Positions 4,606 through 61,833 are shown, counted from the stretch's first letter. The stretch: 64,000 nt of DNA from a virus (IMGVR_UViG_3300029368_000161); one strand, 5' to 3'. Notes: generated by a model from the sequence alone, not told the origin. Translations and numbers: made by a program.

Positions 4606-4658
4606 TTTCATATTGGTAGTGTAAACGAAACTATTTCAACAACGAAAGGAGAAAACTT
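4606..4658 (+). promoter_or_regulatory. Type-A promoter/leader module
   Basis: tttcatattggtagtgtaaacgaaactatttcaacaacgaaaggagaaaacttATG. It is part of an 84-bp direct repeat with 5745-5838. Confidence 0.55.
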
Positions 4659-5087
4659 ATGTTAATTTACGGAGTATGTGTTTCAGACATTAAACATTAC
4701 AATACGGAGAAGGCAGAGAAATTCTTGAATAGTCTCTTGGATACTGCTTGCCGCGGCATCGCCGACAATTACTTTGAAAACAAAGCGGATGGAAATAATC
4801 TTTACGACTGGCTTGATGGATACGATTCTTGCGATGGCTATTCAGGTCCAGCGGCTTGTTTCAAAGAAATCATCCGGGAATTGGAAGGAATCGATGTGGA
4901 CTGCGACGATCCAAACGGCGATCAGTTCCTTGGTATTTCCGCTGATGCACCATGGCATTTCAATGAGAAAACAAGGAATTTGTCAAAAGAAGAGTTCCAT
5001 GAGATCTTATCGCGGTATGTTTCTTATTTTACTGATGATGAGTTGGGGATCCGTTGGTGGCGTGCCAACGATGACTGCGAATATTAA
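4659..5087 (+). CDS. hypothetical acidic protein (142 aa)
   Basis: ORF with a type-A leader upstream and a terminator at 5095-5125 (agagttttcgggctcttctttttttt). Confidence 0.6.
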   Translation: MLIYGVCVSDIKHYNTEKAEKFLNSLLDTACRGIADNYFENKADGNNLYDWLDGYDSCDGYSGPAACFKEIIRELEGIDVDCDDPNGDQFLGISADAPWHFNEKTRNLSKEEFHEILSRYVSYFTDDELGIRWWRANDDCEY

Positions 5088-6552: not shown

Positions 6553-6609
6553 TTTTATTAAGAAAATAAACAGGATAAAGGCACGGCTCCGGCTGTGTCT
6601 TTTTTTGTA

Positions 6610-6660
6610 TTTCATATTAAAAATGTAGAGATTTTTTTTGCGAAAGGAGAAAGAGAAAAT
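6610..6660 (+). promoter_or_regulatory. Type-A promoter/leader module upstream of the CCA-adding enzyme gene
   Basis: tttcatattaaaaatgtagagattttttttgcgaaaggagaaagagaaaatATG. Confidence 0.55.
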
Positions 6661-8043
6661 ATGAAAAAAGAAGAATTAATACCGGATGTCCGCTCACGGG
6701 AAGATATTAACCGGCTATATCAGGTGTTTACCGCATCAGGATATCAGCTGTATCCCGTTGGGGGCTGTGTGAGGGATGCTGTAGCCGGAACAGCGCCACA
6801 CGACTACGATATGTGTACAAATGCTGTTCCGGCGCGGGTCATTCAGATTTTGCAGGACGGGCAGATTCCGTTCCATGCACCGGGGATCGACTTTGGTACG
6901 GTCATTGCAGATGTAAGAGGGAATTCCTACGAAATTACGAGCTTCCGGTCAGAAAGAGAATATACCGATGGCCGGCATCCGGGTAAGATCGTATTTGAGA
7001 AGGAGATAAATAAGGATCTTTCCAGAAGAGACTTTACGATCAATGCGATGGCTTACGATCTGCAGTCCGAAACGGTCATTGACCCATTCAACGGCATCAG
7101 CGACCTACAGAACGGCATCATTAAATGTGTTGGAGACCCTTTCGAGCGCTTTCAGGAGGACGGGCTTCGGATTGTCCGGGCACTTCGATTTGCAATCCGC
7201 TATGGGGCAGATTTTGATGGGAAAACGGCGGGAGCAATCCATGAGAACCTTGGAATGCTGCAGAACGTTTCAAAAGAACGTATCCTTATGGAATTTAGGA
7301 AAATCCTGAGTATGGATAAACCGGTTTCCAGAGTTTTTGTGGAATATGCAGATGTAATTACCTGCCTTATTCCGGAATTAAAGTCGTGCGTACATTTCAA
7401 TCAGAACAACAGATACCATAAGCATGATGTGTACGAGCATCTGCTCGCTGTAACAGATTTGTGCCAGACCACAAAATTTGAGATTAAGATGGCAGCACTG
7501 CTTCACGATATTGGAAAGCCGGACAGCTACATGGAAGATGAGAACGGACATGGTCATTTTTACGGGCATCCGGCAGTATCCGCGGAGATTGCAAAGGGAG
7601 TTCTGAAAACGGATTTTAAGGGGTTGAAGACGGAAGAATATGACCGTATCGTTGCGCTTGTGAAAACGCACGACAAATCAATTTCGTCGTCAAGAAAATC
7701 CGTAAAAAGATTCATCGCTGCTCATGGAGCGGATTTCCTCGATGACTGGGCTGTTTTAAAGAAAGCAGATTTCGATGACCACATTTTCCCGTCAGAACCG
7801 CCAAAAAACTGGTTTACGGATATTCCAGATGTCCTGAAAATCCGTGATGAACTTGTGGCAGAGGAAGAGTGCTTTTCCCTGAAAGATCTGGCAGTTAATG
7901 GGAAAGATCTGATGAAAGAACTTGGCCTAAAACCGGGAAAGAAGATTGGTGCTATCCTGCAGCAGATGCTTGAAGCGGTCATTAACGAAACGGTAACAAA
8001 CAATCGGGATGAACTTCTTTCCCTCGCACAGAAACTTATTTAA
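6661..8043 (+). CDS. cca: CCA-adding tRNA nucleotidyltransferase with HD domain
   Basis: GGCVRD motif (LYPVGGCVRDAVAG...DYDM) of the poly(A) polymerase/CCA family. RDFTINAMAYD motif. HD-domain motifs HKHDVYEHLLAV and LLHDIGKP. About 460 aa. Confidence 0.85.
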   Translation: MKKEELIPDVRSREDINRLYQVFTASGYQLYPVGGCVRDAVAGTAPHDYDMCTNAVPARVIQILQDGQIPFHAPGIDFGTVIADVRGNSYEITSFRSEREYTDGRHPGKIVFEKEINKDLSRRDFTINAMAYDLQSETVIDPFNGISDLQNGIIKCVGDPFERFQEDGLRIVRALRFAIRYGADFDGKTAGAIHENLGMLQNVSKERILMEFRKILSMDKPVSRVFVEYADVITCLIPELKSCVHFNQNNRYHKHDVYEHLLAVTDLCQTTKFEIKMAALLHDIGKPDSYMEDENGHGHFYGHPAVSAEIAKGVLKTDFKGLKTEEYDRIVALVKTHDKSISSSRKSVKRFIAAHGADFLDDWAVLKKADFDDHIFPSEPPKNWFTDIPDVLKIRDELVAEEECFSLKDLAVNGKDLMKELGLKPGKKIGAILQQMLEAVINETVTNNRDELLSLAQKLI

Positions 8044-11729: not shown

Positions 11730-11780
11730 AATTTCCGAAATCCTTTGACGATTTTTCAAATGGCGCAATATGTGTATGGA
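11730..11780 (+). promoter_or_regulatory. Type-B promoter (TTGACG -35 and conserved AAATGGCGCAATATGTGTAT spacer/-10 block)
   Basis: ctttgacgatttttcaaatggcgcaatatgtgtatgg. Same block as copies at 13155, 19940, 22552, 28975, 33105, 37230, 38130, 41330, 41593. Confidence 0.55.
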
Positions 11781-11999
11781 AAAGGCATAAAAGGATTCAT
11801 GGTCCTGCCTTTTCCTGTGGAGATTCGTCTCTCCACAGACCTCCGAATTTTAAATGTATATCTATGACTGCACTGTCCTCCTGTTACGGGGCAGTACAGG
11901 AGGGGTCCACAGAGCTTTGCCAGCACTGGACACAAAGTGGCTGTTCATCCGGTTCGAGTCCGGAGGATTCCTTTCGTATAAGAAGAAAGGGGGAAAAGA
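11781..11999 (+). promoter_or_regulatory. L2 structured 5' leader (paralog of 41371-41580), ending in a T-arm-like hairpin tccggttcgagtccgga
   Basis: Shared about 80-nt block caggaggggtccacag...cacaaagtggctgttcatccggttcgagtccggaggattcc with 41455-41545. An internal hairpin ctgtggagattcgtctctccacag is present. Confidence 0.4.
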
Positions 12000-12224
12000 A
12001 TGAGCAAAGAAGCATTAACTTTGGAAGAATTAAAAAACATGCAAGGACAGCCCGTGTGGTGCCCGGACCTCAACTCTTACGGCATCATCAAGTGTGACAC
12101 GTCCGGGAAATGGAAGGGAATTCCCTATATCCACGGTTCCCAGTATTTCCCGGAATTTGGAACCTCGACGGATTTTGAATACAACATCTTAGAGCGCGGA
12201 CTTGTCTGCCAGCATATTCTCTGA
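12000..12224 (+). CDS. hypothetical protein (74 aa)
   Basis: RBS AGGGGGAAAAGA-ATG. Confidence 0.5.
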   Translation: MSKEALTLEELKNMQGQPVWCPDLNSYGIIKCDTSGKWKGIPYIHGSQYFPEFGTSTDFEYNILERGLVCQHIL

Positions 12225-17057: not shown

Positions 17058-17942
17058 ATGAAAAAATCAAACGAAGAAAAAACTTATGCAACTCTTAAAC
17101 TTGGTAAGACTTATAAGTTTGCCGGATACAATTGGATGGCCTGTGAAGTGGATAATGACCGTCATGTTGTTGTAATCCAGTCGCATGGGGTAACCCATGG
17201 TGCATGGCCGGGATATACAATGCCACAGTTTGGAAACGGCAATTACTATTCCAATTCCATTGATGGAAAGGACATCAGCGACTACGATGACAAGATGCGG
17301 GCACTTTACGATGACATCAAAGATGCAGAGGATAAAGCTGCTCCTTATGGGGAAGGACTGTATTTGATATCAGTGGAAAAAGCCGAGTTTAAGGAATGGG
17401 ATAACACAGGTTCCGGAAATTACTGGCAGGCATTGAAGGCAACGGCAGAAAACGCCCATTCGTTCCGGGATGCCAATTACTTTGCGTGGCTCGGTGCTGA
17501 CAATGGCAGCAAAGGCGCGTGGTGTGTTGACTCGGATGGCTGCTTCTACAACTACTTCAATAAACGCAACGACTTTGTTATTGCCCCATGCTTCAACTTA
17601 GATTTATCGAAGGTTAAAGTTGTAGATAACGAAATCGTCATTATAGACAATAAATTTGGTATATCCTTAATTGAGAAACCAGATGTTTATGGCCTGGTAA
17701 AATCAGAAATCATTAAAATGTATGACATGCTGGACACGGATGAAGTATACCCGTTAGAAATCAGCGGTTCCCAGAGTTCTGCAATGGGCTTTATTACCCA
17801 AAAGGCAGCGGAAGTCATTGATTATGACTACGAGAATTCGGGGCTGAATGAATTTATATCATCTATTCTGGATGATATGGATAAGGAATCAGAAGACAGT
17901 ATCTATGATTTCCATGGTGTTAAAATTCATCTTGAACGTTGA
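17058..17942 (+). CDS. hypothetical protein; paralog family 1 (QSHGVTHGxWPG...FGNGNYY...SGNYWQALK...APxFNLDLSK)
   Basis: The N-terminal ~190 aa are paralogous to the 60632 and 61216 gene products. Confidence 0.6.
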   Translation: MKKSNEEKTYATLKLGKTYKFAGYNWMACEVDNDRHVVVIQSHGVTHGAWPGYTMPQFGNGNYYSNSIDGKDISDYDDKMRALYDDIKDAEDKAAPYGEGLYLISVEKAEFKEWDNTGSGNYWQALKATAENAHSFRDANYFAWLGADNGSKGAWCVDSDGCFYNYFNKRNDFVIAPCFNLDLSKVKVVDNEIVIIDNKFGISLIEKPDVYGLVKSEIIKMYDMLDTDEVYPLEISGSQSSAMGFITQKAAEVIDYDYENSGLNEFISSILDDMDKESEDSIYDFHGVKIHLER

Positions 17943-19939: not shown

Positions 19940-19978
19940 TTCCTTTGACAATTTTCCAGATGGCGCAATATGTGTATT
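19940..19978 (+). promoter_or_regulatory. Type-B promoter
   Basis: cctttgacaattttccagatggcgcaatatgtgtattg. Confidence 0.5.
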
Positions 19979-20115
19979 GTAAAGGTCATAAACCGGGCTG
20001 CCAGGGTTACCGGCTGGCAGAAATCCTTTCGAAAATGTTTACGCTTCCGGGAAAACCCGGAAAGGAGCAGGAGGACAGCAGCACATGCTGCTTCCGGGTG
20101 CGATTCCCGGATGCT
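19979..20115 (+). promoter_or_regulatory. L1 structured 5' leader RNA, copy a (candidate riboswitch/attenuator) upstream of the helicase gene
   Basis: gtaaaggtcataaaccgggctgccagggttaccggctggcag...ttccgggaaaacccggaa...GGAGCAgg..agcagcacatgctgct..tccgggtgcgattcccgga-TGCTTC-tttt. About 85% identical to the copies at 33143 and 38171. The outer stem covaries across copies (GGAGCA/TGCTTC here). The T-arm-like hairpin is followed by a U-tract. Confidence 0.5.
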
Positions 20116-20184
20116 TCTTTTACAAGACCGCACGAAGCGGCGCAAAAACCACATAAACATGACAAAATACAGGGAGATTAAAAA

Positions 20185-22659: not shown

Positions 22660-22893
22660 GTTGCACCACGCAAGGGTGCAGGGGTGAAATATTATACTGA
22701 ATCGTCGCTGCCTGCATAGATATAGTTGCATCCCTTATGGGATGTATGGGTTGAAATTCAATAGAAACAGATGCATTCGGAGGTGTTACAAGTTGCACCC
22801 CCGCAAGGGGTGCATGGGTTGAAAATAAGAAATGGTAGGAAGGAATTCAGATATGAACATTAGTTGCATCCCGCAAGGGTGCAGGGGTGAAGT
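22660..22893 (+). CRISPR. Mini CRISPR array M1: 4 degenerate type I-C-like repeats, 3 spacers
   Basis: Repeats are gttgcaccacgcaagggtgcaggggtgaaat, gttgcatcccttatgggatgtatgggttgaaat, gttgcacccccgcaaggggtgcatgggttgaaaat and gttgcatcccgcaagggtgcaggggtgaag. Spacers are 34-36 nt. Spacer 2 (tcaatagaaacagatgcattcggaggtgttacaa) recurs in M3. Confidence 0.7.
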
Positions 22894-31115: not shown

Positions 31116-32900
31116 ATGAGTGGTTTACCATTTGATCCTATTATTATTGCGGTTGTCGCGGTCGTTGTGATCCTTATCGGCATACTTGCCAGCGGGTATG
31201 TCAAAGCGCCGGCAGACAAGGCATACATCATTTCCGGACTTAAGAAAGTTCCGAAGGTGTTAATTGGCCGGGCAGGAATTAAGATTCCTTTTCTGGAAAG
31301 AAAAGACGAACTTCTGTTAAAGCAGATCGGTATTGATATTAAAACCGGAGGCTATGTTCCAACGAAAGATTTCATCGGTGTTGATATTGATGCGATTGCA
31401 AAAATCCGTCTGATTTCCATGCAGGATGTAGGCAAAGAGAAAACCTATACCAGAACAATCGTTGATGAGATTGTTGACGGCAGCAATACAAAAGATGGAG
31501 ATAAAGAATATTCAACTCATACAGAAACTGTTACAATCAAGATTACAGAAGATATGGCGCGTGCGGCAATGCGGAATTTCCTTAATATGAAAGAATCCAA
31601 CATTGTTGAAGCTTTACAGGATTCTTTACAGGGAAATATGAGAGAAATCGTTGGTACGCAGACATTGCGTGCTTTGTGCCAGGATCGTAAATCTTTTGGT
31701 GATGAGGTTCAGAGCAAAGCGCAGCCGGATATGAATGCCCTCGGTGTATGGATCGAGTCCTGCAATATTCAGCGTATTGAGGACGAACAGGATCTGATCA
31801 ATGCTCTTGGTATGGATAACATGGCTGCTATCCAGAAGAGTGCAAGCATTGCAAAGGCAGAGGCTGACAAAGACGTTGCGATTGCACAGGCGAAGGCAGC
31901 AAGAGAAGCAAATGATGCAAAAGTCGCCGCTGATACGGAAATTGCTGAGAAGCAGAACGAGCTTGCAATCAAAAAGGCAGAATTACAGCAGCTCTCTGAC
32001 ACAAAGAAGGCGATTGCGGATGCTGCTTATAAGATTCAGGAACAGGAACAGCGTAAAGCGATTGAGACAGCAAAAGTTAATGCAGATATTGCAGAGCAGG
32101 AAAGAACTGTTGAACTTCGCGAGAAGGAAGCACAGGTTGCAGAACAGACACTTAATGCGACGGTAAAGAAGCAGGCGGATGCAGATAAGTACAGCAGACA
32201 GCAGGCTGCAGAAGCAAATCTGATTGAAAAATCCCGTCAGGCTGATGCAGAAAAATATCAGCAGGAGAAGGAAGCAGAAATCCAAAAGATTAAGGCAGAG
32301 GCCGATAAGGAAGCGAAGAAAAAAGAAGCAGAAGGTATTCTTGCAATCAAGAGATCAGAAGCAGAAGGTATCGCCGCTGTAGGTAAAGCAGAAGCTCAGG
32401 CAATCGAAGCAAAAGGTATTGCAGAAGCTCAAGCAATGGAGAAAAAAGCAGAAGCTTATTCAAAGTATAACAAGGCTGCTGTTGCAGAAATGACGATCAA
32501 AATGCTTCCAGAGCTTGCAGCCAAAGTTGCTGAGCCGCTTGGACAGATTGACAAAATCACAATCATCGGAGGCGGCGATGGCAGCAATGGTATCGAACAG
32601 GTTGCCGGGAATGTTCCTGTTGTTATGGCGAAGGTCTTTGAGAGTGTCAAAGAAGCTACAGGGATAGATCTGACAAGTATTGTTAATGCTGAGTCTTACG
32701 ATGCGAAGGTTAACCGCAATGTTAATTTAACCGGTATCAAAGATACGGTGGCAATTTCCGGCGGATCAAAGAGTGATACTGACGCAGATAAAACCGAGAA
32801 TTCCGGCATCGATTCTGATTTATCAGGAGAAAATGCAGAGGTCATCCGTTCTTTGGCAGAAAATGCTAATCAGGAATCAGCTGACAGTAATCTGGACTAA
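31116..32900 (+). CDS. flotillin / SPFH (band 7) domain protein with long coiled-coil E/A/K-rich region (YqiK/FloT-like)
   Basis: N-terminal TM segment IIIAVVAVVVILIGILASGYV followed by an SPFH-type fold. It ends in a very long EA repeat coiled-coil (AKAEADKDVAIAQAKAAREANDAKVAADTEIAEKQNELAIKKAELQQ...), as in flotillins. Confidence 0.75.
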   Translation: MSGLPFDPIIIAVVAVVVILIGILASGYVKAPADKAYIISGLKKVPKVLIGRAGIKIPFLERKDELLLKQIGIDIKTGGYVPTKDFIGVDIDAIAKIRLISMQDVGKEKTYTRTIVDEIVDGSNTKDGDKEYSTHTETVTIKITEDMARAAMRNFLNMKESNIVEALQDSLQGNMREIVGTQTLRALCQDRKSFGDEVQSKAQPDMNALGVWIESCNIQRIEDEQDLINALGMDNMAAIQKSASIAKAEADKDVAIAQAKAAREANDAKVAADTEIAEKQNELAIKKAELQQLSDTKKAIADAAYKIQEQEQRKAIETAKVNADIAEQERTVELREKEAQVAEQTLNATVKKQADADKYSRQQAAEANLIEKSRQADAEKYQQEKEAEIQKIKAEADKEAKKKEAEGILAIKRSEAEGIAAVGKAEAQAIEAKGIAEAQAMEKKAEAYSKYNKAAVAEMTIKMLPELAAKVAEPLGQIDKITIIGGGDGSNGIEQVAGNVPVVMAKVFESVKEATGIDLTSIVNAESYDAKVNRNVNLTGIKDTVAISGGSKSDTDADKTENSGIDSDLSGENAEVIRSLAENANQESADSNLD

Positions 32901-33104
32901 CAGAATATGTAATTTAAGACATATACCGGGGTACTTGCGTATTCTGGTATATGTCTTTTTATGCTTTTATGGTGAGAGTTTTATTTTTGATCATGGCGAA
33001 ACGATACCAAAGAAAGTCCGGTTTGCAGTGTACGAAAAATGCAACCACCGGTGCAGTTTTTACTTCGAAAAGATCGGACTGGATATGGCGTAAGTTTTCA
33101 AAAA

Positions 33105-33142
33105 ATCTTTGACGATTTTTCAAAAGGCGCAATATGTATAGT
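33105..33142 (+). promoter_or_regulatory. Type-B promoter
   Basis: atctttgacgatttttcaaaaggcgcaatatgtatagtg. Confidence 0.5.
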
Positions 33143-33300
33143 GTAAAGGTCATAAACCGAGCTGCCAGGGTTACCGGCTGGCAGAAAATCCTTTCGAAAA
33201 ATGTTTACGTTCCGGGAAATCCCCGGAAAGGATAGTGGGTACGCAGCGCAAGTTATTCCGGGTTCGACTCCCGGATATCCTTTTTCAAAATTGCAGGAAA
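33143..33300 (+). promoter_or_regulatory. L1 structured 5' leader RNA, copy b
   Basis: gtaaaggtcataaaccgagctgccagggttaccggctggcagaaaatcctttcgaaaaatgtttacgttccgggaaatccccggaaAGGATAgtgggtacgcagcgcaagttattccgggttcgactcccggaTATCCTTTTT. Outer stem AAAGGATA/TATCCTTT. Confidence 0.5.
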
Positions 33301-34456: not shown

Positions 34457-34508
34457 GAAAGAAGCCGGGGAATCCCGACTTTTCTGCTGCATTGTGTGTA
34501 TATTTTAA

Positions 34509-34582
34509 CGCCGCCTGCGGGATTCGAACCCGCGGATAAAGAGTTCAAAGCTCCCTGCGTTAACCTTTTCGCCAAGGCGGAG
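34509..34582 (-). tRNA. tRNA-Gln(TTG)-like (terminal acceptor pair mismatched)
   Basis: Reverse complement folds with T-arm GCGGG-TTCGAAT-CCCGC. Anticodon stem GGGAG/CTCTT with loop CTTTGAA. No encoded CCA. Confidence 0.5.
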
Positions 34583-34650
34583 CACACCCGGAAGGACTCG
34601 AACCCTCGTTACCGGTTTTGGAGACCAGTTTCTGTCCATCAGACAGGTGC
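34583..34650 (-). tRNA. tRNA-Trp(CCA)
   Basis: Anticodon loop CTCCAAA flanked by stem CTGGT/ACCGG. T-loop TTCGAGT. Acceptor GCACCTG/CGGGTGT has G.U pairs. Confidence 0.55.
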
Positions 34651-34654
34651 GTAA

Positions 34655-34725
34655 CAGGCGATAATGGAATCGAACCATTGTTTTCTGAGTCAGAATCAGA
34701 TGTCTTACCATTGAACGAATCGCCC
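34655..34725 (-). tRNA. tRNA-Gln(CTG)
   Basis: Acceptor GGGCGAT/ATCGCCT. Anticodon stem TCTGA/TCAGA with loop TTCTGAC. T-arm AATGG-TTCGATT-CCATT. Confidence 0.6.
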
Positions 34726-34727
34726 AG

Positions 34728-34801
34728 TATCCCCAAAGGGACTCGAACCCTTAACCGACAGATTAGAAATCTGTTGCTCTTTCCAATTGAGCTATGGGGA
34801 T
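34728..34801 (-). tRNA. tRNA-Arg(TCT)
   Basis: Clean cloverleaf: ATCCCCA-TA-GCTC-AATTGGAAA-GAGC-A-ACAGA-TTTCTAA-TCTGT-CGGTT-AAGGG-TTCGAGT-CCCTT-TGGGGAT-A. Confidence 0.8.
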
Positions 34802-34807
34802 ATATAG

Positions 34808-34897
34808 CGCAGACACCGGGGATCGAACCCGGACAGCGGGTGTGCCGCATGCCACATTAGCAGTGTGGAGGGGTACCATTTACCTTTATATGTCTGC
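34808..34897 (-). tRNA. tRNA-Ser(GCT)-like, 90 nt with long variable arm (D-arm atypical)
   Basis: Anticodon stem-loop CCACA-CTGCTAA-TGTGG. Variable arm GCGG-CACA-CCGC. T-arm CCGGG-TTCGATC-CCCGG. Acceptor GCAGACA/TGTCTGC. Confidence 0.5.
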
Positions 34898-34902
34898 ATA
34901 AG

Positions 34903-34974
34903 AGGCATCGGAGGGGATCGAACCCTCGCCTTCCGGGTTGCAGCCGGACGCCTTCGCCGTTTGGCTACGATGCC
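34903..34974 (-). tRNA. tRNA-Cys(GCA)
   Basis: GGCATCG-TA-GCC...GGC-TCCGG-CTGCAAC-CCGGA-..GAGGG-TTCGATC-CCCTC-CGATGCC-T. The U73 discriminator is typical of Cys. Confidence 0.8.
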
Positions 34975-35004
34975 ATATAATTCTTCCCGATAAGAGAAGA
35001 TGAG

Positions 35005-35088
35005 CGCTGGGGCAGGGAGTCGAACCCTGATATCCTTTCGGAATGACGGTTTTCAGGACCGTTGCTTTACCAGTTGAGCCACCACAGC
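35005..35088 (-). tRNA. tRNA-Ser(TGA) with long variable arm
   Basis: Anticodon stem ACGGT/ACCGT with loop CCTGAAA. Variable arm TCC-GAAA-GGA. T-arm CAGGG-TTCGACT-CCCTG. 3-bp D stem GCT/AGC. Confidence 0.6.
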
Positions 35089-35333
35089 AAAAATAAAAGC
35101 ATACACCTCTCAATCGAAAGATGTATGCTTTGCAATTCCAGGTATTTCCAATATTCTCCCGGAAATTTCCCTACAATGACCACATTTCTTTCAATTTGAG
35201 ACAATATTTATTTGCACGACAACTACGCCAGATACATGACTGCGACTGACTCATACTTGCCTGTGAATATTGTCTCATTACTGCTGTAATCATTGATTTT
35301 CCCTTCCTTTCCTTGGTTTTCTTGAATATTTAG

Positions 35334-35407
35334 TGTGTCTGGTGGGACTTGAACCCGACGACCCCACGATTAAAAGTCGCGTGCTCTGCCAACTGAGCTA
35401 CAGACAC
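35334..35407 (-). tRNA. tRNA-Lys(TTT)
   Basis: GTGTCTG-TA-GCTC-AGTTGGCA-GAGC-A-CGCGA-CTTTTAA-TCGTG-GGGTC... acceptor CAGACAC-A. Strongly resembles Bacillus tRNA-Lys. The T stem has irregular pairing. Confidence 0.7.
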
Positions 35408-35412
35408 ATAAG

Positions 35413-35484
35413 CGGATCAGGAGGGAATCGAACCCTCATCTTCCGGTAGACAGCCGGATGTACTAGCCGCTATACTACAGATCC
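35413..35484 (-). tRNA. tRNA-Asp(GTC)
   Basis: Anticodon stem TCCGG/CCGGA with loop CTGTCTA. T-arm GAGGG-TTCGATT-CCCTC. One T.T mismatch in the acceptor stem. Confidence 0.65.
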
Positions 35485-35488
35485 ATAA

Positions 35489-35561
35489 AGCTCCCGTCCG
35501 GCTTCGAACCGGAAACCTTCTGATTACAAGTCAGATGCACTACCAGTTGTGCTACAGGAGC
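35489..35561 (-). tRNA. tRNA-Thr(TGT)
   Basis: GCTCCTG-TA-GCAC-AACTGGTA-GTGC-A-TCTGA-CTTGTAA-TCAGA-AGGTT-TCCGG-TTCGAAG-CCGGA-CGGGAGC-T. Confidence 0.8.
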
Positions 35562-35645
35562 AGGAACACTTCCGACGGGTGCTGCCCCGCTATCTCCGCC
35601 GTGACAGGGCGGTGACTCTGTTGTTTGTCCTCGGAAGTAAATAAG

Positions 35646-35727
35646 TGCGCCGGGGAGGACTCGAACCTCCGGTGTTTCTTTGTGGCTGATTTACAGTCAG
35701 CTGCTGTCGCCTCTGAGCCACCGACGC
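35646..35727 (-). tRNA. tRNA-Tyr(GTA), 82 nt with extended variable region
   Basis: Acceptor GCGTCGG/CCGGCGC. Anticodon stem GCTGA/TCAGC with loop CTGTAAA. T-arm GGAGG-TTCGAGT-CCTCC. Confidence 0.65.
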
Positions 35728-35732
35728 ATAAG

Positions 35733-35804
35733 CTGGTCCGGAGGGTCTCGAACCCTCAACGCCCCGGTTAACAGCCGGGTGCTCTACCATTGAGCTACGG
35801 ATCA
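35733..35804 (-). tRNA. tRNA-Asn(GTT)
   Basis: D-arm GCTC-AATGGTA-GAGC. Anticodon stem CCCGG/CCGGG with loop CTGTTAA. T-arm GAGGG-TTCGAGA-CCCTC. One A.C mismatch in the acceptor. Confidence 0.7.
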
Positions 35805-35805
35805 G

Positions 35806-35877
35806 AGCATGTGACGGGTCTCGAACCCGCCCGTCCTGCTTGGAAGGCAGGTGTGCCGCCAACAACACTTCACATGC
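35806..35877 (-). tRNA. tRNA-Gly(TCC)
   Basis: Acceptor GCATGTG/CACATGC with discriminator U. Anticodon stem CCTGC/GCAGG with loop CTTCCAA. 4-nt variable loop. T-arm GCGGG-TTCGAGA-CCCGT. Confidence 0.7.
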
Positions 35878-35942
35878 ATGCGGATAAAAGAAGTGCCTGT
35901 TTTCTCTTATCCATTCAGTTTTTTTACCGCATCGCTGCGGAG

Positions 35943-36014
35943 TGGACAGGAGTGGTAACGATCCACCCTGTAAGGATTTTCAGTCCTTCGCTAATCCATC
36001 TCAGCTACCTGTCC
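35943..36014 (-). tRNA. tRNA-Phe(GAA)-like with non-canonical T-loop (ATCGTTA)
   Basis: Acceptor GGACAGG/CCTGTCC (perfect 7 bp). 8-9 is TA. Anticodon stem AAGGA/TCCTT with loop CTGAAAA. T-arm GGTGG-ATCGTTA-CCACT lacks the T54/A58 identities. It lies 65 nt away from the main cluster. Confidence 0.45.
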
Positions 36015-38129: not shown

Positions 38130-38170
38130 AACTTTTGACGATTTTTTAAATGGCGCAATATGTATCATGT
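38130..38170 (+). promoter_or_regulatory. Type-B promoter
   Basis: acttttgacgattttttaaatggcgcaatatgtatcatg. Confidence 0.5.
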
Positions 38171-38345
38171 AAAGGTCATAAACCGAGCTGCCAGGGTTAT
38201 CGGCTGGCAGAAATCTTTTCGATATTTGTTTACACTCCGGGGAAACCCGGAAGGGGTAGTGAGGACGCAGCGTGTGCTGTTTCCGGGTTCGATTCCCGGG
38301 TATCCCTTTTGACTGCCACATACGGTCTTCTCAAAATTCAGCCGT
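38171..38345 (+). promoter_or_regulatory. L1 structured 5' leader RNA, copy c
   Basis: gtaaaggtcataaaccgagctgccagggttatcggctggcag...tccggggaaacccggaa-GGGGTA-gtgaggacgcagcgtgtgctgtt-tccgggttcgattcccgg-GTATCCC-tttt. The loop change GGTTACCGG to GGTTATCGG and the outer stem GGGGTA/TATCCC covary relative to copies a and b. Confidence 0.5.
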
Positions 38346-38588
38346 CTGCGGCCTGTGGAACTTTCCACTGGACCAAAATAACGATAACCGCCAGAATAAC
38401 AGCAGCGTGCGTTGGCGTGAGAACTATCGGCGCACAGGGATTACTCCTTTCATATTTATCTATCAAACCTTTCCGTACATCGTATGGAAAGGTTATGGGA
38501 CAGCAGGTGCATAGACATGAACTATTCCGGGATCGTTTCCCGGATGTTCCATTTTTAAAACATTAAAACAAATCATAGGAGGGAATTG

Positions 38589-41329: not shown

Positions 41330-41370
41330 AATCTTTTGACGATTTTTTAAAAGGCGCAATATACATATTG
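41330..41370 (+). promoter_or_regulatory. Type-B promoter (first of two tandem copies upstream of cas5c)
   Basis: atcttttgacgattttttaaaaggcgcaatatacatattgaagggataaacaggggcttaccg. The +1 region TATTGAAGGRATAAACAGGGGCTTRCCG is shared with the 41593 copy. Confidence 0.5.
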
Positions 41371-41580
41371 AAGGGATAAACAGGGGCTTACCGTTTGTTT
41401 CTTCAATAAGAGTTTTTCTCTTATATGCCTCCTTAAGTTTCCTGCGCTGCATTTACAGCATTTTGGCAGCGCAGGGGGAATCCACAGGACTGCATTTGAC
41501 GTTGTGTGGCGGCCTGCTCATCCGGTTCAACCCCGGAGGATTCCCTTACCGCTTATTTTTGCGGAGACAAAAATTTTAAA
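41371..41580 (+). promoter_or_regulatory. L2 structured leader (paralog of 11781-11999), ending in T-arm-like hairpin tccggttcaaccccgga
   Basis: cagcgcagggggaatccacaggactgcatttgacgttgtgtggcggcctgctcatccggttcaaccccggaggattccc, then a weak terminator ccgcttatttttgcgg. Confidence 0.4.
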
Positions 41581-41592
41581 AAATATTCAAAA

Positions 41593-41632
41593 ATTCTTTG
41601 ACGATTTTTTAAAAGGCGCAATATGTGTATTG
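41593..41632 (+). promoter_or_regulatory. Type-B promoter (second tandem copy, proximal to cas5c)
   Basis: ttctttgacgattttttaaaaggcgcaatatgtgtattgaaggaataaacaggggcttgccg. Confidence 0.5.
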
Positions 41633-41717: not shown

Positions 41718-42392
41718 ATGGAAAAAGAAAAAATGGGAGTGAAACTAAAAGTCTGGGGAGATTACGCATTGTTCACCAGACCAGAACTGAAAACTGAACG
41801 GTATACATACGATGTGATGACACCGTCGGCGGCTAGAGGAATTCTGGAATCTATCTACTGGCATCCGGGACTTCGGTGGTATGTAGACAAGATTCATGTA
41901 TTAAATCCGATTGCCACTACGAGCGTGAGAAGAAATGAACTTCTCAGTAAGATACCAAAGTCAAATATGCTGCAGGCATACAACGGCGGGGATGTGAAAC
42001 TGTATAACTCGTCAAGAGACGATATTATCCAGAGGGCATCTGTTATTCTCCGGGATGTCTGCTATGTGATTGAGGCGCATTTTGAAATGACAGGGAAAGC
42101 GAGCCCAACAGACAGCCCGGCAAAGTTTATAAGTATCTTTAACAACAGGGCAAGAAAAGGGGCATGTTATTCGATGCCGTATTTTGGTGTAAGGGAATTC
42201 CCGGCACACTTTGAACTCTGCGAAGGAGATGAAAAGATCCCATCCTACTATGAAGGACTTCCGGATAAAGATCTCGGGCTGATGCTTTATGATCTGGATT
42301 ACTCCTGCGGTAGAGATATCCAGCCAATGTATTATCATGCGATTATGAAAAACGGCGTTATTGACGTTGGAAACAGTGAGGTGCTTCGATGA
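41718..42392 (+). CDS. cas5c: Cas5c (type I-C Cas5d; Cascade subunit and pre-crRNA endoribonuclease)
   Basis: N-terminus ...KLKVWGDYALFTRPELKTERYTYDVMTPSAARGILESIYWHP matches the Cas5d hallmark. 224 aa. Overlaps cas8c by ATGA. Confidence 0.8.
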   Translation: MEKEKMGVKLKVWGDYALFTRPELKTERYTYDVMTPSAARGILESIYWHPGLRWYVDKIHVLNPIATTSVRRNELLSKIPKSNMLQAYNGGDVKLYNSSRDDIIQRASVILRDVCYVIEAHFEMTGKASPTDSPAKFISIFNNRARKGACYSMPYFGVREFPAHFELCEGDEKIPSYYEGLPDKDLGLMLYDLDYSCGRDIQPMYYHAIMKNGVIDVGNSEVLR

Positions 42393-44128
42393 TCCTTCAG
42401 TCACTTGTGAAATTATATGAAACACTTGCGGATCAGGGAAAAGTGTCCCGTCCTGGCTGGTGTAATGCAAAGGTATCCTATGCGGTGGTTTTAAACCATG
42501 ATGGGACGATTAAAGATATTGTTTCCGTGAAACAGAAAGTGAAGAGAGGAAAGAAGACTGTTGAAATTCCAATAATTATGCAGGTTCCAGAGATGGTCAC
42601 CCGCGCTAACAACATTGCCTCCAGCTTTCTCTGCGAAAATGCAAAGTATCTCTTTGGGATTGACGAAAAGATGAGTTTGCGTACACTGGAATGTTTTAAG
42701 GCGGCAAAGAAAAAACATCTTGATATTCTTGATGTTGTGGATTCACCTGTAGCACAGACGGTATGTAACTTTTTCCGTTCATGGGATCCGGAACAGGCGT
42801 TGGATCAACCGGCTGTTGCAAAACTTGCAGAAGAGTTTTATAAAGGCGGAAACCTCGTTTTTGAAGTAGATGGGGAATATGTGCATGATAATGAAGAAGT
42901 CCGCAGGGCATGGATGGATTACAGCAGTGTACCATATGAAATGGTAATTGGAAGATGCCTTATTACTGGAGAGGAAGCGGAGATTGCCCGCACGCACGGG
43001 AAAATCAAAGGAGTTCCGGGAGCACAGTCATCTGGCGCGTCGCTTGTATCATTTAACGGAGCATCCCTTGAGTCTTATGAAAAAACACAGAGCTACAACG
43101 CGCCGATTAGCACCTATGCGGCGTATGCATATGTGACCGCGCTGAATTACTTGCTTTCTACGGACGGGTATCACAGCAAGGTAGGAGATTCCATGGTGGT
43201 TTTCTGGACAGATTCCGGGGATGTGGATGATGTGAGCAGACTGCGGAAGATGATGGGAAGCATCAATGAAAAGGATCACACCCCTACAGATACGGATGAA
43301 AAACTGTACGTCCTCTGCCTTGCACCAAATGCCGGGCGAATTGCAGTCCGGTTCTTCTATGAGGATGCGATCGGGGTAATCTGGGAAAACCTGTCCGAAC
43401 ATGCCAGTCGGATGAAGATTGTAAAACCAGTATTTGAGGATCAAGAATTTATCAATATCTGGCAGATGCTCATGGAGACAGTCAACCAGAATCTTACAGA
43501 TAAAACACCTGTCCCGCATATGTCAGCAATGACGTTACAGTCAGTCATTTCGGATACACCGTATCCGCAGAGTCTGTATGCAGGTGTGTTATCTCGTATC
43601 CGCGCGGAGCACAAAGGTGTTACTTACAGAAAAGCATCGATTATTAAAGCTTTTTTAATAAAGAACTACAAATGGGAGGAAGGAAAAAATATGGAAGCAT
43701 TAAATGAAGGCTGTAAGGATCGGGCATATATCCTTGGAAGACTGTTTGCGGTTATGGAAAAGGCACAGAAAGAAGCAGTTGGCAATATCAACCAGACAAT
43801 TTGTGATAAGTTTTACAATTCCGCGTGCACAACACCAAGATCGATCTTTCCAGTACTGATCAGGCTATCTAACAGTCATTTAAGTAAGTTGAAACGGACA
43901 AAACCGGGGAGAGGATATTATTTTACAGCTAAAATGCAGGATTTAATGGATAAAATTCCGGTAACAGATGATGATCCGGGATTCCCGCGGCGTTTCTCAT
44001 ATGAGGATCAGGGTAAGTTTGCACTTGGTTATTATCATCAGATGCGGGCGGAATATACAAGCAGTAAGTTAAAAGATAATGATTCAGAAGGTGATCAGAC
44101 AAATGCAGAGAATATGGAGGAAAACTAA
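42389..44128 (+). CDS. cas8c: Cas8c (Csd1, type I-C large subunit)
   Basis: 579 aa, of the size expected for Cas8c/Csd1. Assigned from the conserved order cas5c-cas8c-cas7c and translational coupling to cas5c (ATGA overlap). Confidence 0.7.
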   Translation: MILQSLVKLYETLADQGKVSRPGWCNAKVSYAVVLNHDGTIKDIVSVKQKVKRGKKTVEIPIIMQVPEMVTRANNIASSFLCENAKYLFGIDEKMSLRTLECFKAAKKKHLDILDVVDSPVAQTVCNFFRSWDPEQALDQPAVAKLAEEFYKGGNLVFEVDGEYVHDNEEVRRAWMDYSSVPYEMVIGRCLITGEEAEIARTHGKIKGVPGAQSSGASLVSFNGASLESYEKTQSYNAPISTYAAYAYVTALNYLLSTDGYHSKVGDSMVVFWTDSGDVDDVSRLRKMMGSINEKDHTPTDTDEKLYVLCLAPNAGRIAVRFFYEDAIGVIWENLSEHASRMKIVKPVFEDQEFINIWQMLMETVNQNLTDKTPVPHMSAMTLQSVISDTPYPQSLYAGVLSRIRAEHKGVTYRKASIIKAFLIKNYKWEEGKNMEALNEGCKDRAYILGRLFAVMEKAQKEAVGNINQTICDKFYNSACTTPRSIFPVLIRLSNSHLSKLKRTKPGRGYYFTAKMQDLMDKIPVTDDDPGFPRRFSYEDQGKFALGYYHQMRAEYTSSKLKDNDSEGDQTNAENMEEN

Positions 44129-44129
44129 G

Positions 44130-45041
44130 ATGAGCACACCAATTAAGAACAGATATGATTTCGTAGTATTATTCGACGTAGAGAATGGAAATCCGAACGG
44201 TGATCCGGATGCCGGAAATATGCCGAGAGTTGATCCAGAGACTGGCATCGGGCTTGTGACAGATGCCTGCATAAAGCGCAAGATCCGTAATTATGTGGAA
44301 ACTGTAAAAGAAGATGCAGCCGGGTTCAAGATCTATATTAAAGAGGGGGTCCCGCTGAACCGGAGTGACCTTAAGGCAGTCGAAAGTCTTGGTATTGACG
44401 TCGGTGACGACAAAAATGCACTTGAAGATGTAAAGAAGCTGAAAAAGACAGATGAAGATGTGGATCTTAAGCTCCGTGACTATATGTGTAGTAATTTCTA
44501 TGATATCCGTACATTTGGTGCTGTCTTGACTACCTTTACAAAGGCGGCATTAAACTGTGGGCAGGTACGTGGCCCGGTACAGATTGGTTTTGCAAAAAGT
44601 ATTGATCCTGTTTTCAGCCAGGATATTACTGTAACCAGAGTTGCAATCACAACGGAAAAGGATGCGGAAAAGAAAAATACAGAAATGGGAAGAAAGAGTA
44701 TTATTCCTTATGGACTTTACCGTGTGGAGGGATATATTTCTGCTAATCTTGCCCGTAAGACCACCGGCTTTTCTGAAGACGATCTGGAACTGCTTTGGGA
44801 AGCAATCATTAACATGTTTGAGAATGACCATTCCGCAGCACGCGGGAAGATGGCAGTGCGTGAGCTCATCGTATTCAAGCATAACAGCGAGCTTGGCAAT
44901 TGTCCATCGTACAAACTGTTTGAAACTGTTGATGTTAAGAAGAATGATGGTGTTGAGTTTCCTCGTAAATATTCCGATTATGCAGTGACTATTCATGAGG
45001 ATGCGATTCCGGATGGCGTGACAATGACTCGCAAAATCTAA
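44130..45041 (+). CDS. cas7c: Cas7c (Csd2/DevR family, type I-C backbone subunit)
   Basis: MSTPIKNRYDFVVLFDVENGNPNGDPDAGNMPRVDPETGIGLVTDACIKRKIRNYVE. The GNPNGDPD motif is the Csd2/Cas7 signature. RBS GGAGGAAAACTAAG-ATG. Confidence 0.85.
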   Translation: MSTPIKNRYDFVVLFDVENGNPNGDPDAGNMPRVDPETGIGLVTDACIKRKIRNYVETVKEDAAGFKIYIKEGVPLNRSDLKAVESLGIDVGDDKNALEDVKKLKKTDEDVDLKLRDYMCSNFYDIRTFGAVLTTFTKAALNCGQVRGPVQIGFAKSIDPVFSQDITVTRVAITTEKDAEKKNTEMGRKSIIPYGLYRVEGYISANLARKTTGFSEDDLELLWEAIINMFENDHSAARGKMAVRELIVFKHNSELGNCPSYKLFETVDVKKNDGVEFPRKYSDYAVTIHEDAIPDGVTMTRKI

Positions 45042-45290: not shown

Positions 45291-46058
45291 AGCTACGCCC
45301 CATGGAGGGGCGTATGGATTGAAAATACCGCAACAATTAAAGGCAATGAAAATCTTGTACGCTACGCCCCATGGAGGGGCGTATGGATTGAAAATGATTG
45401 TTATTGTTTTTTATTCATGGAGAGGAAAGCTACGCCCCATGGAGGGGCGTATGGATTGAAAAGTAAGGTTTCGTCTCGAAGCCTTTATTCTGTTTTGCTG
45501 CGCCCCATGGAGGGGCGTATGGATTGAAATACCAAAATCTTTTGACATTCTTATAAATGGTAACAGCTACGTCTTATGGGGTACGTATGGATTGAAATCA
45601 TAATAATTGTAGAGATCTCAATACAAAATAAAGCTGCGTCTCATGGAATACGTATGGATTGAAATGAAAAGGCGAGTTTGCGAAAGCAGATATTGGAATG
45701 TTGCGTCTCGTGGAGTACGTATGGATTGAAATTCCAACTTTAACTACATAACTATCCTGATAAACTTGCTGCACCCCATGGAGAGTGTATGGATTGAAAT
45801 TTAAAAAATCATGGATAACATCTGCGATAAGACGTTGCACCTCGCTAGGGGTGTATGGGTTGAAATTTCCATAATCGGTAGCCAATTATTATCATTAGGT
45901 GTTGCACCCCATAGAGGGTGTATGGATTGAAATTATATAAAAATGATGAATATGTAAAAAAAATAAAAGAGTTACGCTCCATGGAGTGCGTATGGCTTGA
46001 AACCTCTTATTTTTTTAAAGATATCACAATTACGCCCAAAGTGGGCTTACGTAAATTT
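45291..46058 (+). CRISPR. Type I-C CRISPR array: 11 repeats (33-34 nt, consensus GYTRCRCCCCATGGAGRGKGTATGGATTGAAAT) plus a terminal degenerate repeat; 10-11 spacers of 26-38 nt
   Basis: The repeat end GGATTGAAAT/C and internal hairpin match canonical I-C repeats. The leader side is adjacent to cas7c. Repeats degenerate toward the distal end (ttacgctccatggagtgcgtatggcttgaaac, then ttacgcccaaagtgggcttacgtaaatt, which runs into the RBS of the 46073 gene). Spacers are listed in the findings. Confidence 0.85.
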
Positions 46059-60635: not shown

Positions 60636-61210
60636 ACAGTGAAATATTTAGAGTAGGTCAAACCTACAGTTTCATGGGTTACGATTGGACGGCCTGTGAG
60701 CTGATCAATAAAGGTAAAACCCTTGTGATTCAGTCCCATGGTGTAACCCATGGGGAATGGCCGGGCTTTGTAATGCCACAGTTTGGCAATGGTAATTACT
60801 ATGCTGATTCCATTGATGGACAGGATATCAGTGCCTATGACAACAAGATGCAGGCACTCTACGATGCCATCAAGGATGCTGAGGATTCATCCACTTCCTA
60901 TGGTAAGGGATTGTTTCTTATTAGCAAAGAAAAAGTCGGTTTTACGGAATGGGGTAAATCTGGTTCCGGAAATTACTGGCAGGCTTTGAAAAAAACAGCG
61001 GAAAACGCCTGTTCGTTCGGGTCTCCCGACAACTATGCGTGGCTTGGTACCGTCTACGGTAGCGGCGGCGCGTGGTATGTCAACTCGAATGGCGGCGTCT
61101 CCTACAACGATCAGAGCGACGACTATGTGGTCGCGCCCGCTTTTAATCTCGACTTATCCAAAGTTGAGGTTGTTGAAAATCAAATTGTCAAAATAAGGTT
61201 AGAAAGGTGA
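60632..61210 (+). CDS. paralog family 1 protein (short form)
   Basis: MNSEIFRVGQTYSFMGYDWTACELINKGKTLVIQSHGVTHGEWPGFVMPQFGNGNYY..., about 55% identical to the 17058 and 61216 products. Confidence 0.55.
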   Translation: MNSEIFRVGQTYSFMGYDWTACELINKGKTLVIQSHGVTHGEWPGFVMPQFGNGNYYADSIDGQDISAYDNKMQALYDAIKDAEDSSTSYGKGLFLISKEKVGFTEWGKSGSGNYWQALKKTAENACSFGSPDNYAWLGTVYGSGGAWYVNSNGGVSYNDQSDDYVVAPAFNLDLSKVEVVENQIVKIRLER

Positions 61211-61215
61211 AAAAT

Positions 61216-61833
61216 ATGAATAGTCAAATTACAAAAAATAACAATGTTTTAGAACTCGGAAAACCATACCAATTTGCCGGTTATAAATGGACAGCCTGTG
61301 AACTGATCAATAAAGGTAAAACTCTTGTGATCCAGTCCCATGGTGTAACCCATGGCGCATGGCCGGGATATGTAATGCCGCAGTTCGGCAACGGGAATTT
61401 TTATGCAGCAGATATTGATGGCGAGGATATTAGTGCCTACGATGACAAGATGCAGACACTCTACGATGCCATCAAGGAGGCTGAGGATTCATCCGCTTCC
61501 TATAGTAAGGGATTGTTTCTTATTAGCAAAGAAAAAGCCGGTTTTACGGAATGGCGTGAACCCGGCTCTGGAAATTACTGGCAGGCTTTGAAAGAGGCTG
61601 CGATGAATTATCAGTCGTTCGGGGCTGCCGACGGCATCGCGTCGCTCGGTACTGTCAACGGCAGCAACAACGCGTGGTATGTCTACTCGGATGGCTACGT
61701 CTACAACGACGAAAATCAGGACTACGACTTTGTTGTCGCGCCCGCTTTTAATCTCGATTTATCCAAAATAGAGATTGTTGGGGACGAGATTATCATTATG
61801 CATAAAGAAAATTTTAAAGATGAAGAAAAATAA
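61216..61833 (+). CDS. paralog family 1 protein (short form), tandem duplicate
   Basis: MNSQITKNNNVLELGKPYQFAGYKWTACELINKGKTLVIQSHGVTHGAWPGYVMPQFGNGNFY.... Confidence 0.55.
   Translation: MNSQITKNNNVLELGKPYQFAGYKWTACELINKGKTLVIQSHGVTHGAWPGYVMPQFGNGNFYAADIDGEDISAYDDKMQTLYDAIKEAEDSSASYSKGLFLISKEKAGFTEWREPGSGNYWQALKEAAMNYQSFGAADGIASLGTVNGSNNAWYVYSDGYVYNDENQDYDFVVAPAFNLDLSKIEIVGDEIIIMHKENFKDEEK

Follow-up and report, generated by a model that had tools for sequence, protein, structure and literature searches.

L1, a family of structured leader RNAs with a mini-tRNA-like 3' domain in a human-gut mobile element

Attenuators built around an intrinsic terminator (those of the pT181 and pIP501 rep genes, of pyrG, and of the T-box leaders), like riboswitch expression platforms, follow a common plan: a promoter-proximal leader ends in a stem and U tract just before the gene, sequence upstream can pair with the 5' strand of the terminator, and a sensor domain is coupled to a shared platform. 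The RNA described here, which we call L1, follows that plan. It is a structured RNA of ~145 bases that occurs three times in a viral DNA stretch of 64,000 nucleotides (IMGVR_UViG_3300029368_000161, hereafter the window), and it is a conserved RNA family, read from the plus strand, with covarying helices. Unlike the attenuators just named, L1 ends in a terminator-like structure that is a three-way junction copying a tRNA's acceptor stem, variable arm, and T arm, and its antiterminator pairing is not statistically established. We put at roughly 40% the probability that L1 is a promoter-proximal transcription attenuator whose tRNA-derived end serves as a terminator or processing module.

An acceptor-like stem stacked on a T arm, with no full cloverleaf, is otherwise known from the t-elements of plant mitochondria (PMC1920247) and from the mascRNA-type 3' ends of MALAT1 and MEN-beta. 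In L1 as in these cases, the module separates a leader or other non-coding segment from the RNA that comes next, and by analogy one would expect cuts by RNase P and RNase Z. The t-elements and mascRNAs are, however, eukaryotic or organellar, whereas the L1 module belongs to a bacterial mobile element, lies always in promoter-proximal leaders, and is followed by a U tract of the bacterial-terminator type. Two further groups invite comparison. The transfer-messenger RNA (tmRNA) and the bacterial Y RNA YrlA have tRNA-like domains that share with the L1 module an acceptor stem, a T arm, and a single-stranded G-rich stretch in place of the D arm; L1 differs in having neither a tag reading frame nor a Ro-binding stem, in receiving no call from Rfam or ARAGORN, and in possessing a hairpin like a variable arm. 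The lambda nut sites, the PR'-tR' 6S transcript, and the put RNA of HK022 resemble L1 as repeated, near-identical RNA sites just past several promoters, with a short terminated transcript (predicted, in the case of L1) unless a factor intervenes; here the differences are that no antiterminator protein has been identified, that the sites in the L1 element vary by leader class, and that the terminator is tRNA-like.

In phages P1 and P7 (C4 RNA) and P4 (CI RNA), RNase P excises small RNAs from mobile-element leaders by way of a tRNA-like fold, and the excised RNAs go on to base-pair with matching sites in the element's other transcripts. L1 does not match the Rfam C4 model, consists of a pseudoknot plus a mini-tRNA, and has Shine-Dalgarno regions as its putative targets. 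We know of no leader family in a bacterial mobile element that is closed by a three-way junction derived from a class-II tRNA.

Structure, position and distribution of the L1 family

The initial annotation of the window had described three copies of L1, and a covariance model (R1) built from these copies and two orthologues matches exactly these places (Table 1). With filters off, its scan of the window yields three full-length matches only, at 156–179 bits (E 1e-40 to 1e-46), and one further partial match of 27 bits at 38450–38559. Mean column identity among the three copies is 88%. For copy 1 the start first proposed is retained; the end first proposed, 20115, falls short of the U tract. Each copy contains the hairpins originally noted, CTGCCAG-GGTTAYCGG-CTGGCAG (hairpin 1) and TTCCGGG-N4-CCCGGAA (hairpin 2), and an outer stem that varies from copy to copy (GGAGCA/TGCTTC, GGATA/TATCC, GGGGTA/TATCCC) and encloses a small hairpin and a T-arm-like hairpin, with T4–5 following. 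The T-arm mimic had been called perfect, which overstates the match: the T loop of copy 1 reads TGCGATT, and across relatives U54 and A58 are kept, with U, G, or C at position 55.

Table 1. Coordinates of L1, its sister leaders and associated features in the window
Feature	Position	Strand	Remarks
L1 copy 1	19979-20121	+	179 bits; upstream of helicase gene, ATG 20185
Copy 1 pseudoknot	AACC 19991-19994 with GGTT 20005-20008	+	from pair counts
Copy 1 hairpin 1	19998-20020	+	
Copy 1 CU box TCCTTTCG	20024-20031	+	
Copy 1 GTTTAC	20037-20042	+	
Copy 1 hairpin 2	20045-20062	+	
Copy 1 outer (acceptor-like) stem	20064-20069 with 20112-20117	+	
Copy 1 variable-arm-like hairpin	20077-20092	+	
Copy 1 T arm	20093-20111	+	
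Copy 1 T4	20118-20121	+	
L1 copy 2	33143-33285	+	162 bits; zinc-ribbon ORF (ATG 33319) begins 33 nt downstream
L1 copy 3	38169-38310	+	156 bits; followed by second unit, then nucleoside-hydrolase-like ORF
Second tandem unit	38405-38556	+	without own promoter; z -5.1, 27 bits
Promoter box TTGACA-N15-GGCGCAATATGT	19940-19976	+	equivalents 33104-33140, 38130-38166
Class X leader	11778-11974	+	after promoter box 11740-11776; no Rfam match
Class Y leader	41370-41544	+	after promoter box 41331-41367; second promoter box and cas5d downstream
Type A 5'UTR, example (GTAAAC-N14-17-CGAAAGGAG-ATG)	4621-4661	+	both ends complementary to L1 central box
Type A 5'UTR, other seven starts	1219, 5143, 5797, 9150, 9780, 15009, 17022	+	
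tRNA nucleotidyltransferase (CCA-adding enzyme)	6595-8043	+	phrog_2244, E 1.4e-72

Every full L1 copy, relatives included, is immediately preceded by a promoter box, TTGACR-N15-GGCGCAATATGT, which belongs to a family of 11 repeats in the window, all on the plus strand (type B promoters), and which a simple sigma-70 scan does not call. As first described, each window copy follows such a promoter and precedes a different gene, encoding a helicase, a zinc-ribbon protein, and a weakly nucleoside-hydrolase-like open reading frame (ORF), respectively. Taking all full copies together, a same-strand gene follows with no other promoter, 13–65 nucleotides (nt) away or ~250–270 nt where a second unit intervenes, and it is one of these three or one of two membrane-protein-like ORFs. 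In the absence of another promoter, a stop or cut at the U tract would set the expression of these genes. PHROGs and PADLOC were uninformative on them, and we see no shared metabolic theme.

Pairing was counted on 32 distinct L1 sequences, which are closely related, in an alignment fitted to the model, a procedure that favours the structure. On this basis 93% of cells in the whole structure are paired, compared with 39–55% when the partners are slid, and two-sided changes occur in 12–13 pairs where shuffling gives 5.6, the observed scores being matched by none of 500 shuffles. The compensatory changes argued for the outer stem are borne out, two-sided changes being found in five of its seven pairs. 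The pseudoknot suspected at the outset gains support in the register AACC:GGUU, in which AACC has as its partner the four bases that open the hairpin 1 loop. Pseudoknot and hairpin 1 are paired in 100% of the sequences, with wobble and two-sided variants, at low diversity (pseudoknot: AACU, AGCU, or AGCC opposite GGUU, and in two diverged copies AGCU:GGCU and AGCU:AGUU), and the connecting loops of the pseudoknot, of 3, 0, and 5 nt, give a geometry that suits an H-type pseudoknot. Loop geometry rules out two further folds that we considered, a RAT/LicT-like structure and an H-type pseudoknot with the 3' flank (GGGUU:AAUCC).

Hairpin 1 is near-invariant, and its single changes, like those of the pseudoknot, all yield G-U on the plus strand, with no mismatches. 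These substitutions bear on the view, to which we assign very little likelihood, that L1 is a constitutive structured 5' untranslated region (UTR) with no switch, in which the compact tRNA-like fold and the stem-loops at the 5' end shield the mRNA against RNases J or Y or tune its translation, or else an operator palindrome acting as DNA. Hairpins 1 and 2 are indeed palindromic as DNA, and in two of the sister leaders described below, class X and L172, the GA-rich 5' end is held in a stable 5'-terminal hairpin; but the plus-strand G-U substitutions become C-A mismatches on the other strand and break the DNA palindromes, and a simple stabilizer needs no pseudoknot, T loop, and U tract retained together. 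A minus-strand RNA is rejected on the same ground, G-U arising on the plus strand only. Coding explanations fare no better: the ATG of the promoter box opens ORFs through L1, but the copies differ by single-base indels that throw off the frame after GGCAGAAA, and the small ORF behind a Shine-Dalgarno-like AGGAGG in copy 1 is lacking in the other copies.

The covariance model and Rfam scan that the initial annotation had proposed find no matching Rfam family. At gathering thresholds Rfam 15 reports 14 tRNAs in the window and nothing else, and ARAGORN likewise reports only tRNAs there, leaving the L1 mini-tRNA uncalled. In E-value mode, copy 1 and the class X leader return chance-level similarities only, such as tRNA-Sec (15.5 bits against 47) and the T arm of Deinococcus Y RNA (15.5 against 80). 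No known riboswitch class had been recognized by eye, and the Rfam scans recover none; the T-box family has no match, and neither a Stem I specifier loop nor a T-box antiterminator bulge is visible in L1.

Relatives of L1 were found by scanning metagenome contigs with a degenerate hairpin-1 pattern and then with R1, which gave 44 matches, 32 of them distinct, at 3–5 per genome; all are restricted to a narrow clade of human-gut elements of 90–340 kb. Further homologues therefore exist. Helicase homologues of 71–73% identity (L011, L015) carry L1 in the same place, and there the L1 orthologues are 88–90% identical, as against 71–75% for the adjacent helicase coding sequence. No L1 stands at a 64% identical helicase homologue, at the loci of 44–48% identical ones, or at loci around flotillins of 55–75% identity. 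Beyond the clade, blastn against phage records found no L1 relative and an exact 23-mer search of IMG/VR found nothing; a loose L1 pattern gave 120 chance matches in IMG/VR, none confirmed by the model, the promoter-box pattern gave chance matches only, and close helicase relatives sought there were absent. GTDB genomes gave chance pattern matches in high-GC organisms and no model match. L1 is, we conclude, a previously undescribed, clean, and testable RNA family, for which 32 sequences now seed a covariance model and a candidate target motif can be stated explicitly.

A few diverged copies (L011 12393–12518 and 14591–14746; L163 1865–2015) keep the 5' domain and lack the U tract, with a simple hairpin or degenerate T arm in place of the mini-tRNA; they may be natural "platform swap" variants or copies in decay.

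This distribution bears on the part of the first proposal, attenuator or riboswitch, that concerned a metabolite. In such a riboswitch the 5' pseudoknot would be the aptamer, for instance for a nucleotide-derived signal, and the ligand would shift the CU-rich box between aptamer and terminator. The H-type pseudoknot with its sound loop geometry and complete pairing would suit that role, as would the order of aptamer and then expression platform, and with no known class matched the riboswitch would be a new one. We nonetheless think it quite improbable. The family occupies one narrow clade and is missing upstream of the 44–64% identical helicase homologues and of the flotillin homologues; copies within a genome are near-identical, stems included; the genes that follow share no metabolic function; and the sister leaders combine the same platform with quite different 5' domains. 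A narrow clade, near-identical copies, and unrelated genes are more readily explained by a protein or RNA partner specific to the element than by a small ligand.

The mini-tRNA module and its sister leaders

The 3' domain of L1 can be aligned with the element's class-II tRNA-Ser genes over their 3' half: its small hairpin corresponds to the variable arm, the T arm and 3' acceptor strand follow, and the D and anticodon arms are missing. Judged from this alignment, the junction appears to derive from a class-II tRNA. With an acceptor stem and a long variable arm, such a mini-tRNA could be readable by a class-II tRNA-binding protein, for example seryl-tRNA synthetase (SerRS). That it is the 3' fragment of a tRNA gene left as an integrase att site is rejected, as the 5' acceptor strand is present and covarying and each genome has many different copies.

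A search of 364 kb of clade DNA for T-loop hairpins stacked on an acceptor-like stem, with called tRNAs excluded and 12 bp required, returned 28 distinct mini-tRNA modules, as against 1–3 in shuffled sequence. Their T stems (for example UCCGGG/CCCGGA, UUCAGGG/CCCUGAA, UUCCGG/CCGGAA, and UCCCGG/CCGGGG) and outer stems vary, and the T arm, with U54...A58 and G53-C61, covaries across classes. T stem and outer stem form a 12-bp stack, split 5+7, 6+6, or 7+5 and with G at +1, which is compatible with the model of a tRNA-type stack and not independent of it, 12 bp having been imposed.

Several of these modules close leaders other than L1 (Table 1). The unit in tandem behind copy 3 comprises a hairpin, a CUCCUUUC box, a second hairpin, the mini-tRNA junction, and T5, and its T loop, GAUCGUU, is that of the element's tRNA-Phe. 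The class X leader begins with different 5' hairpins and a CCUCC box and continues with a mini-tRNA (outer stem GGGGTCC/GGATTCC, T arm TCCGG-TTCGAGT-CCGGA), TTT, a ribosome-binding site, and an ATG at 12000, while in class Y a CCUCCUU box and a hairpin precede the mini-tRNA (GGAATCC/GGATTCC, T arm TCCGG-TTCAACC-CCGGA). Mini-tRNA modules also end leaders in L017, L162, and L172, and in all of these sister leaders the 5' parts are unrelated to L1. The common order is a CU-rich box (CUCCUUUC or CCUCCUU), a hairpin, a GA-rich run into the acceptor-like stem, the mini-tRNA, and usually U3–8. Since 5 of the 11 conserved type B promoters of the window lead into such a module, it is probably a main control point of the element's early programme.

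Two side observations belong here. A small CCGC-loop-GCGG hairpin lies 3' of the mini-tRNA both in helicase-type L1 (20127–20150, and kept in L011 and L015) and in class Y (41545–41565). The class Y promoter box and another at 41593–41629, separated by 262 bp, are followed by almost the same initial transcribed sequence (GAAGGRATAAACAGGGGCTTRCCG); the former leads into the mini-tRNA leader, the latter into a solitary hairpin like a CRISPR repeat just before cas5d.

Possible modes of action: attenuation, antitermination and release of a small RNA

In the mechanism that we infer, some of the element's type B transcripts would carry L1 as their 5' leader, with transcription starting a few bases past the GGCGCAATAT box. 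The first structure in the nascent RNA would be a small pseudoknot of the H type, combining AACC:GGUU with the 7-bp hairpin 1; next would come a single-stranded CU-rich box, then hairpin 2 and the tRNA-derived three-way junction, whose acceptor-like stem abuts U3–6. With that stem closed, RNA polymerase would terminate, an RNA of ~145 nt would be released, and the gene would not be transcribed; with closure prevented, most likely when the CU box captures GGAAAGGA, the GA-rich 5' strand, the gene would be read. The choice between the two states would fall to the conserved 5' domain, whose signal we take to be a macromolecule peculiar to the element, either protein or RNA, and not a metabolite. 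Since the leader is closed by a mini-tRNA, RNase P, RNase Z, and the element's own CCA-adding enzyme probably recognize this structure as well, and they might trim or stabilize the released RNA.

The terminal structure resembles a terminator, as first suggested, in that a G+C-containing stem stands immediately before a U tract. The outer stem of 6–8 bp directly abuts U3–U6 in L1, and the longest tracts, U5–U8, are in the gene-nearest unit. At the foot of the outer stem, GGAAAGGA is a possible pairing partner of the box AUCCUUUC; when transcripts are cut short ahead of the 3' strand, AUCCU/UCCUU pairs with AGGGA/AAGGA in the predicted folds of about half the variants; and RNAalifold picks the pairing AUCCUUUC:GAAAGGAU. 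At full length the alternative folds lie within a few kcal/mol of one another. Leaders with different 5' domains end alike in CU box, hairpin, mini-tRNA, and U tract, which is the usual layout of sensor and expression platform. Of the first proposal, the 5' domain capable of a pseudoknot, the tRNA-like T-arm domain, and the U tract before the gene are supported.

Several observations count against attenuation. The U tracts of L1 are shorter than the U8 of the element's ordinary terminators, and class Y has none at all. The antiterminator suggested earlier appears in the truncated folds and not in the statistics, as upstream complementarity to the 5' strand of the outer stem does not exceed shuffled controls in 9 of 11 units across the leader classes. 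The helix P1 (GUAAA:UUUAC) is weak and is disrupted in both L015 copies. Finally, a plain terminator could do without a T loop, and yet the T arm shows both conservation and covariation across classes; tRNA-type recognition is thus implied, and something tRNA-specific must also act.

Near-identical RNA sites that lie just past several of an element's promoters, each with a terminator-like structure behind it, would also be expected of a processive antitermination site like nut or put. Hairpin 1 and the pyrimidine-rich box would then correspond to boxB and boxA and load a factor that lets polymerase read through the mini-tRNA terminator and later ones. The hairpin followed by CCUUUCGAAAA appears to resemble the Firmicute rrn boxA, UUCUUUGAAAA; against the idea, no N-, Q-, or LoaP-like gene was identified, and the other leader classes lack hairpin 1. 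We rate it as unlikely.

A second kind of transcript start in the window suggests another possible role for L1. The promoter and 5'UTR of this type A class follow a canonical hairpin-U8 terminator and together read TTTCATATT-N8-GTAAAC-N14-17-CGAAAGGAGAAAA-ATG. The motif GTAAAC-N14-17-CGAAAGG begins eight plus-strand 5'UTRs, where 0.05 would be expected, and its exact reverse complement is the single-stranded box of L1, UCCUUUCG-N5-GUUUAC; CGAAAGGA occurs 20 times as against 2.7 expected. Predicted duplexes of L1 with the type A sequences range from -14 to -20 kcal/mol (mean -17), compared with -9 ± 1.6 for dinucleotide shuffles, none of 300 of which reaches them (z ~-5). This two-block complementarity is a lead only, explained in part by constraints in cis: it is partly automatic because of L1's pairing with its own GUAAA 5' end and because of any anti-Shine-Dalgarno-like switching sequence.

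On this lead rests the principal rival to attenuation, possible in our judgment though doubtful, in which L1 is a trans-acting small RNA, the mini-tRNA a 3'-end maturation signal, and the downstream gene a passenger. As in the t-elements or MALAT1/mascRNA, RNase P would cut 5' of the acceptor-like stem and RNase Z after it, releasing an RNA of ~85 nt (pseudoknot, CU box, and hairpin 2) whose exposed UCCUUUCG-N5-GUUUAC would pair with the Shine-Dalgarno region and 5' end of type A mRNAs and block their translation. The complementarity to all eight 5'UTRs is exact, with energies beyond those of every shuffle, and the L1 box fits the type A UTRs (8+6 bp) better than it does L1's own segments (7+5 bp). 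The eight UTRs have one motif in common, however, and so amount effectively to one comparison; only ~3 of the nucleotides are extra and specific to type A, the remaining complementarity being partly automatic, and GUUUAC is absent from the other leader classes. The likeness of the junction to the 3' half of class-II tRNA-Ser, with its 12-bp stack and G at +1, speaks for maturation of a tRNA type, but the 12-bp rule came with the scan, and several stems can be extended past 12 bp. That the element's tRNAs lack CCA and have U-first trailers, that it encodes a CCA-adding enzyme, and that L1 and its tandem second unit make sense as tRNA-style punctuation likewise favour a processed small RNA; no free-standing unit was found away from a downstream ORF or promoter.

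A composite of these ideas seems to us improbable: mini-tRNAs would punctuate the early leaders, terminating or pausing transcription; RNase P and RNase Z would then cut them, the element's own enzyme might add CCA, and the anti-Shine-Dalgarno small RNAs so released would shut down type A translation, a temporal switch made out of tRNA-processing machinery. Should attenuation by a terminator prove correct, the mini-tRNA would be an unusual terminator architecture. Should the module be a processing signal, tRNA punctuation as known from organelles and long non-coding RNAs would extend to bacterial mobile elements, with ties to this element's tRNAs and CCA-adding enzyme.

The carrier element and neighbouring features

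The window has a G+C content of 40%, and none of its 14 called tRNA genes encodes CCA. It also encodes an NAD-dependent ligase, DNA methylases, and a PcfJ-like protein. The helicase beside copy 1 is found identical on human-gut contigs of up to 344 kb and is recorded in 279 blocks of the assembly collection, so that the carrier is common in human gut metagenomes; it is either a jumbo phage or a conjugative megaplasmid. The gut "Hodor" megaplasmids have a type I-C system and degraded arrays (2026 preprint; PMC12934698), and the carrier is compared with them only tentatively.

In the tRNA cluster at 34508–36014 (minus strand), trailers begin with U, often as UUAU, and tRNA-Phe has the unusual T loop mentioned above. 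Between tRNA-Arg and tRNA-Cys, at 34809–34897 on the same strand, lies an 89-nt class-II tRNA-like gene called by neither ARAGORN nor the Rfam tRNA model; by eye it has an acceptor stem GCAGACA/TGTCTGC, the anticodon loop CUGCUAA (Ser-GCU), a long variable arm, and the T arm CCGGGTTCGATCCCCGG.

Type I-C genes cas5d-cas8c-cas7 occupy 41718–45041 (Pfam E 1e-38 to 1e-165), and neither cas3 nor any adaptation gene was seen in their vicinity. A degenerate repeat array follows at 45292–46011, its repeats ending in ATGGATTGAAAT; single repeats lie at 22724, 22792, 37695, 39317, 39391, 41013, 41077, and 41144, and mini-arrays of one to three repeats adjoin other genes. Although the window has these genes and arrays, L1 contains no anti-repeat to GTATGGATTGAAAT, and its interpretation as a tracrRNA or CRISPR-repeat mimic is rejected; the likeness of AUAAACCG to the 5' handle of the E. 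coli type I-E system has the wrong spacing, and we judge it a coincidence.

The flotillin/Band-7 gene at 31116–32900 (plus strand) is 73% identical to one on bacterial-looking contigs (L142–L144), near which are genes for spermine synthase, lactate dehydrogenase, and two-component proteins, and its product is ~60% identical to proteins of Lachnospiraceae and Oscillospiraceae. These identities suggest recent capture from a Clostridia host. A 1241-residue Cas12a (Cpf1) is encoded at 2455–6180 of L145, next to a 68% identical flotillin. Lastly, 17124–17640 and 60677–61795 hold three diverged copies (74–87% identity) of a coding segment of 300–500 bp in distant ORFs, which may be paralogues or reflect a repeated protein domain.
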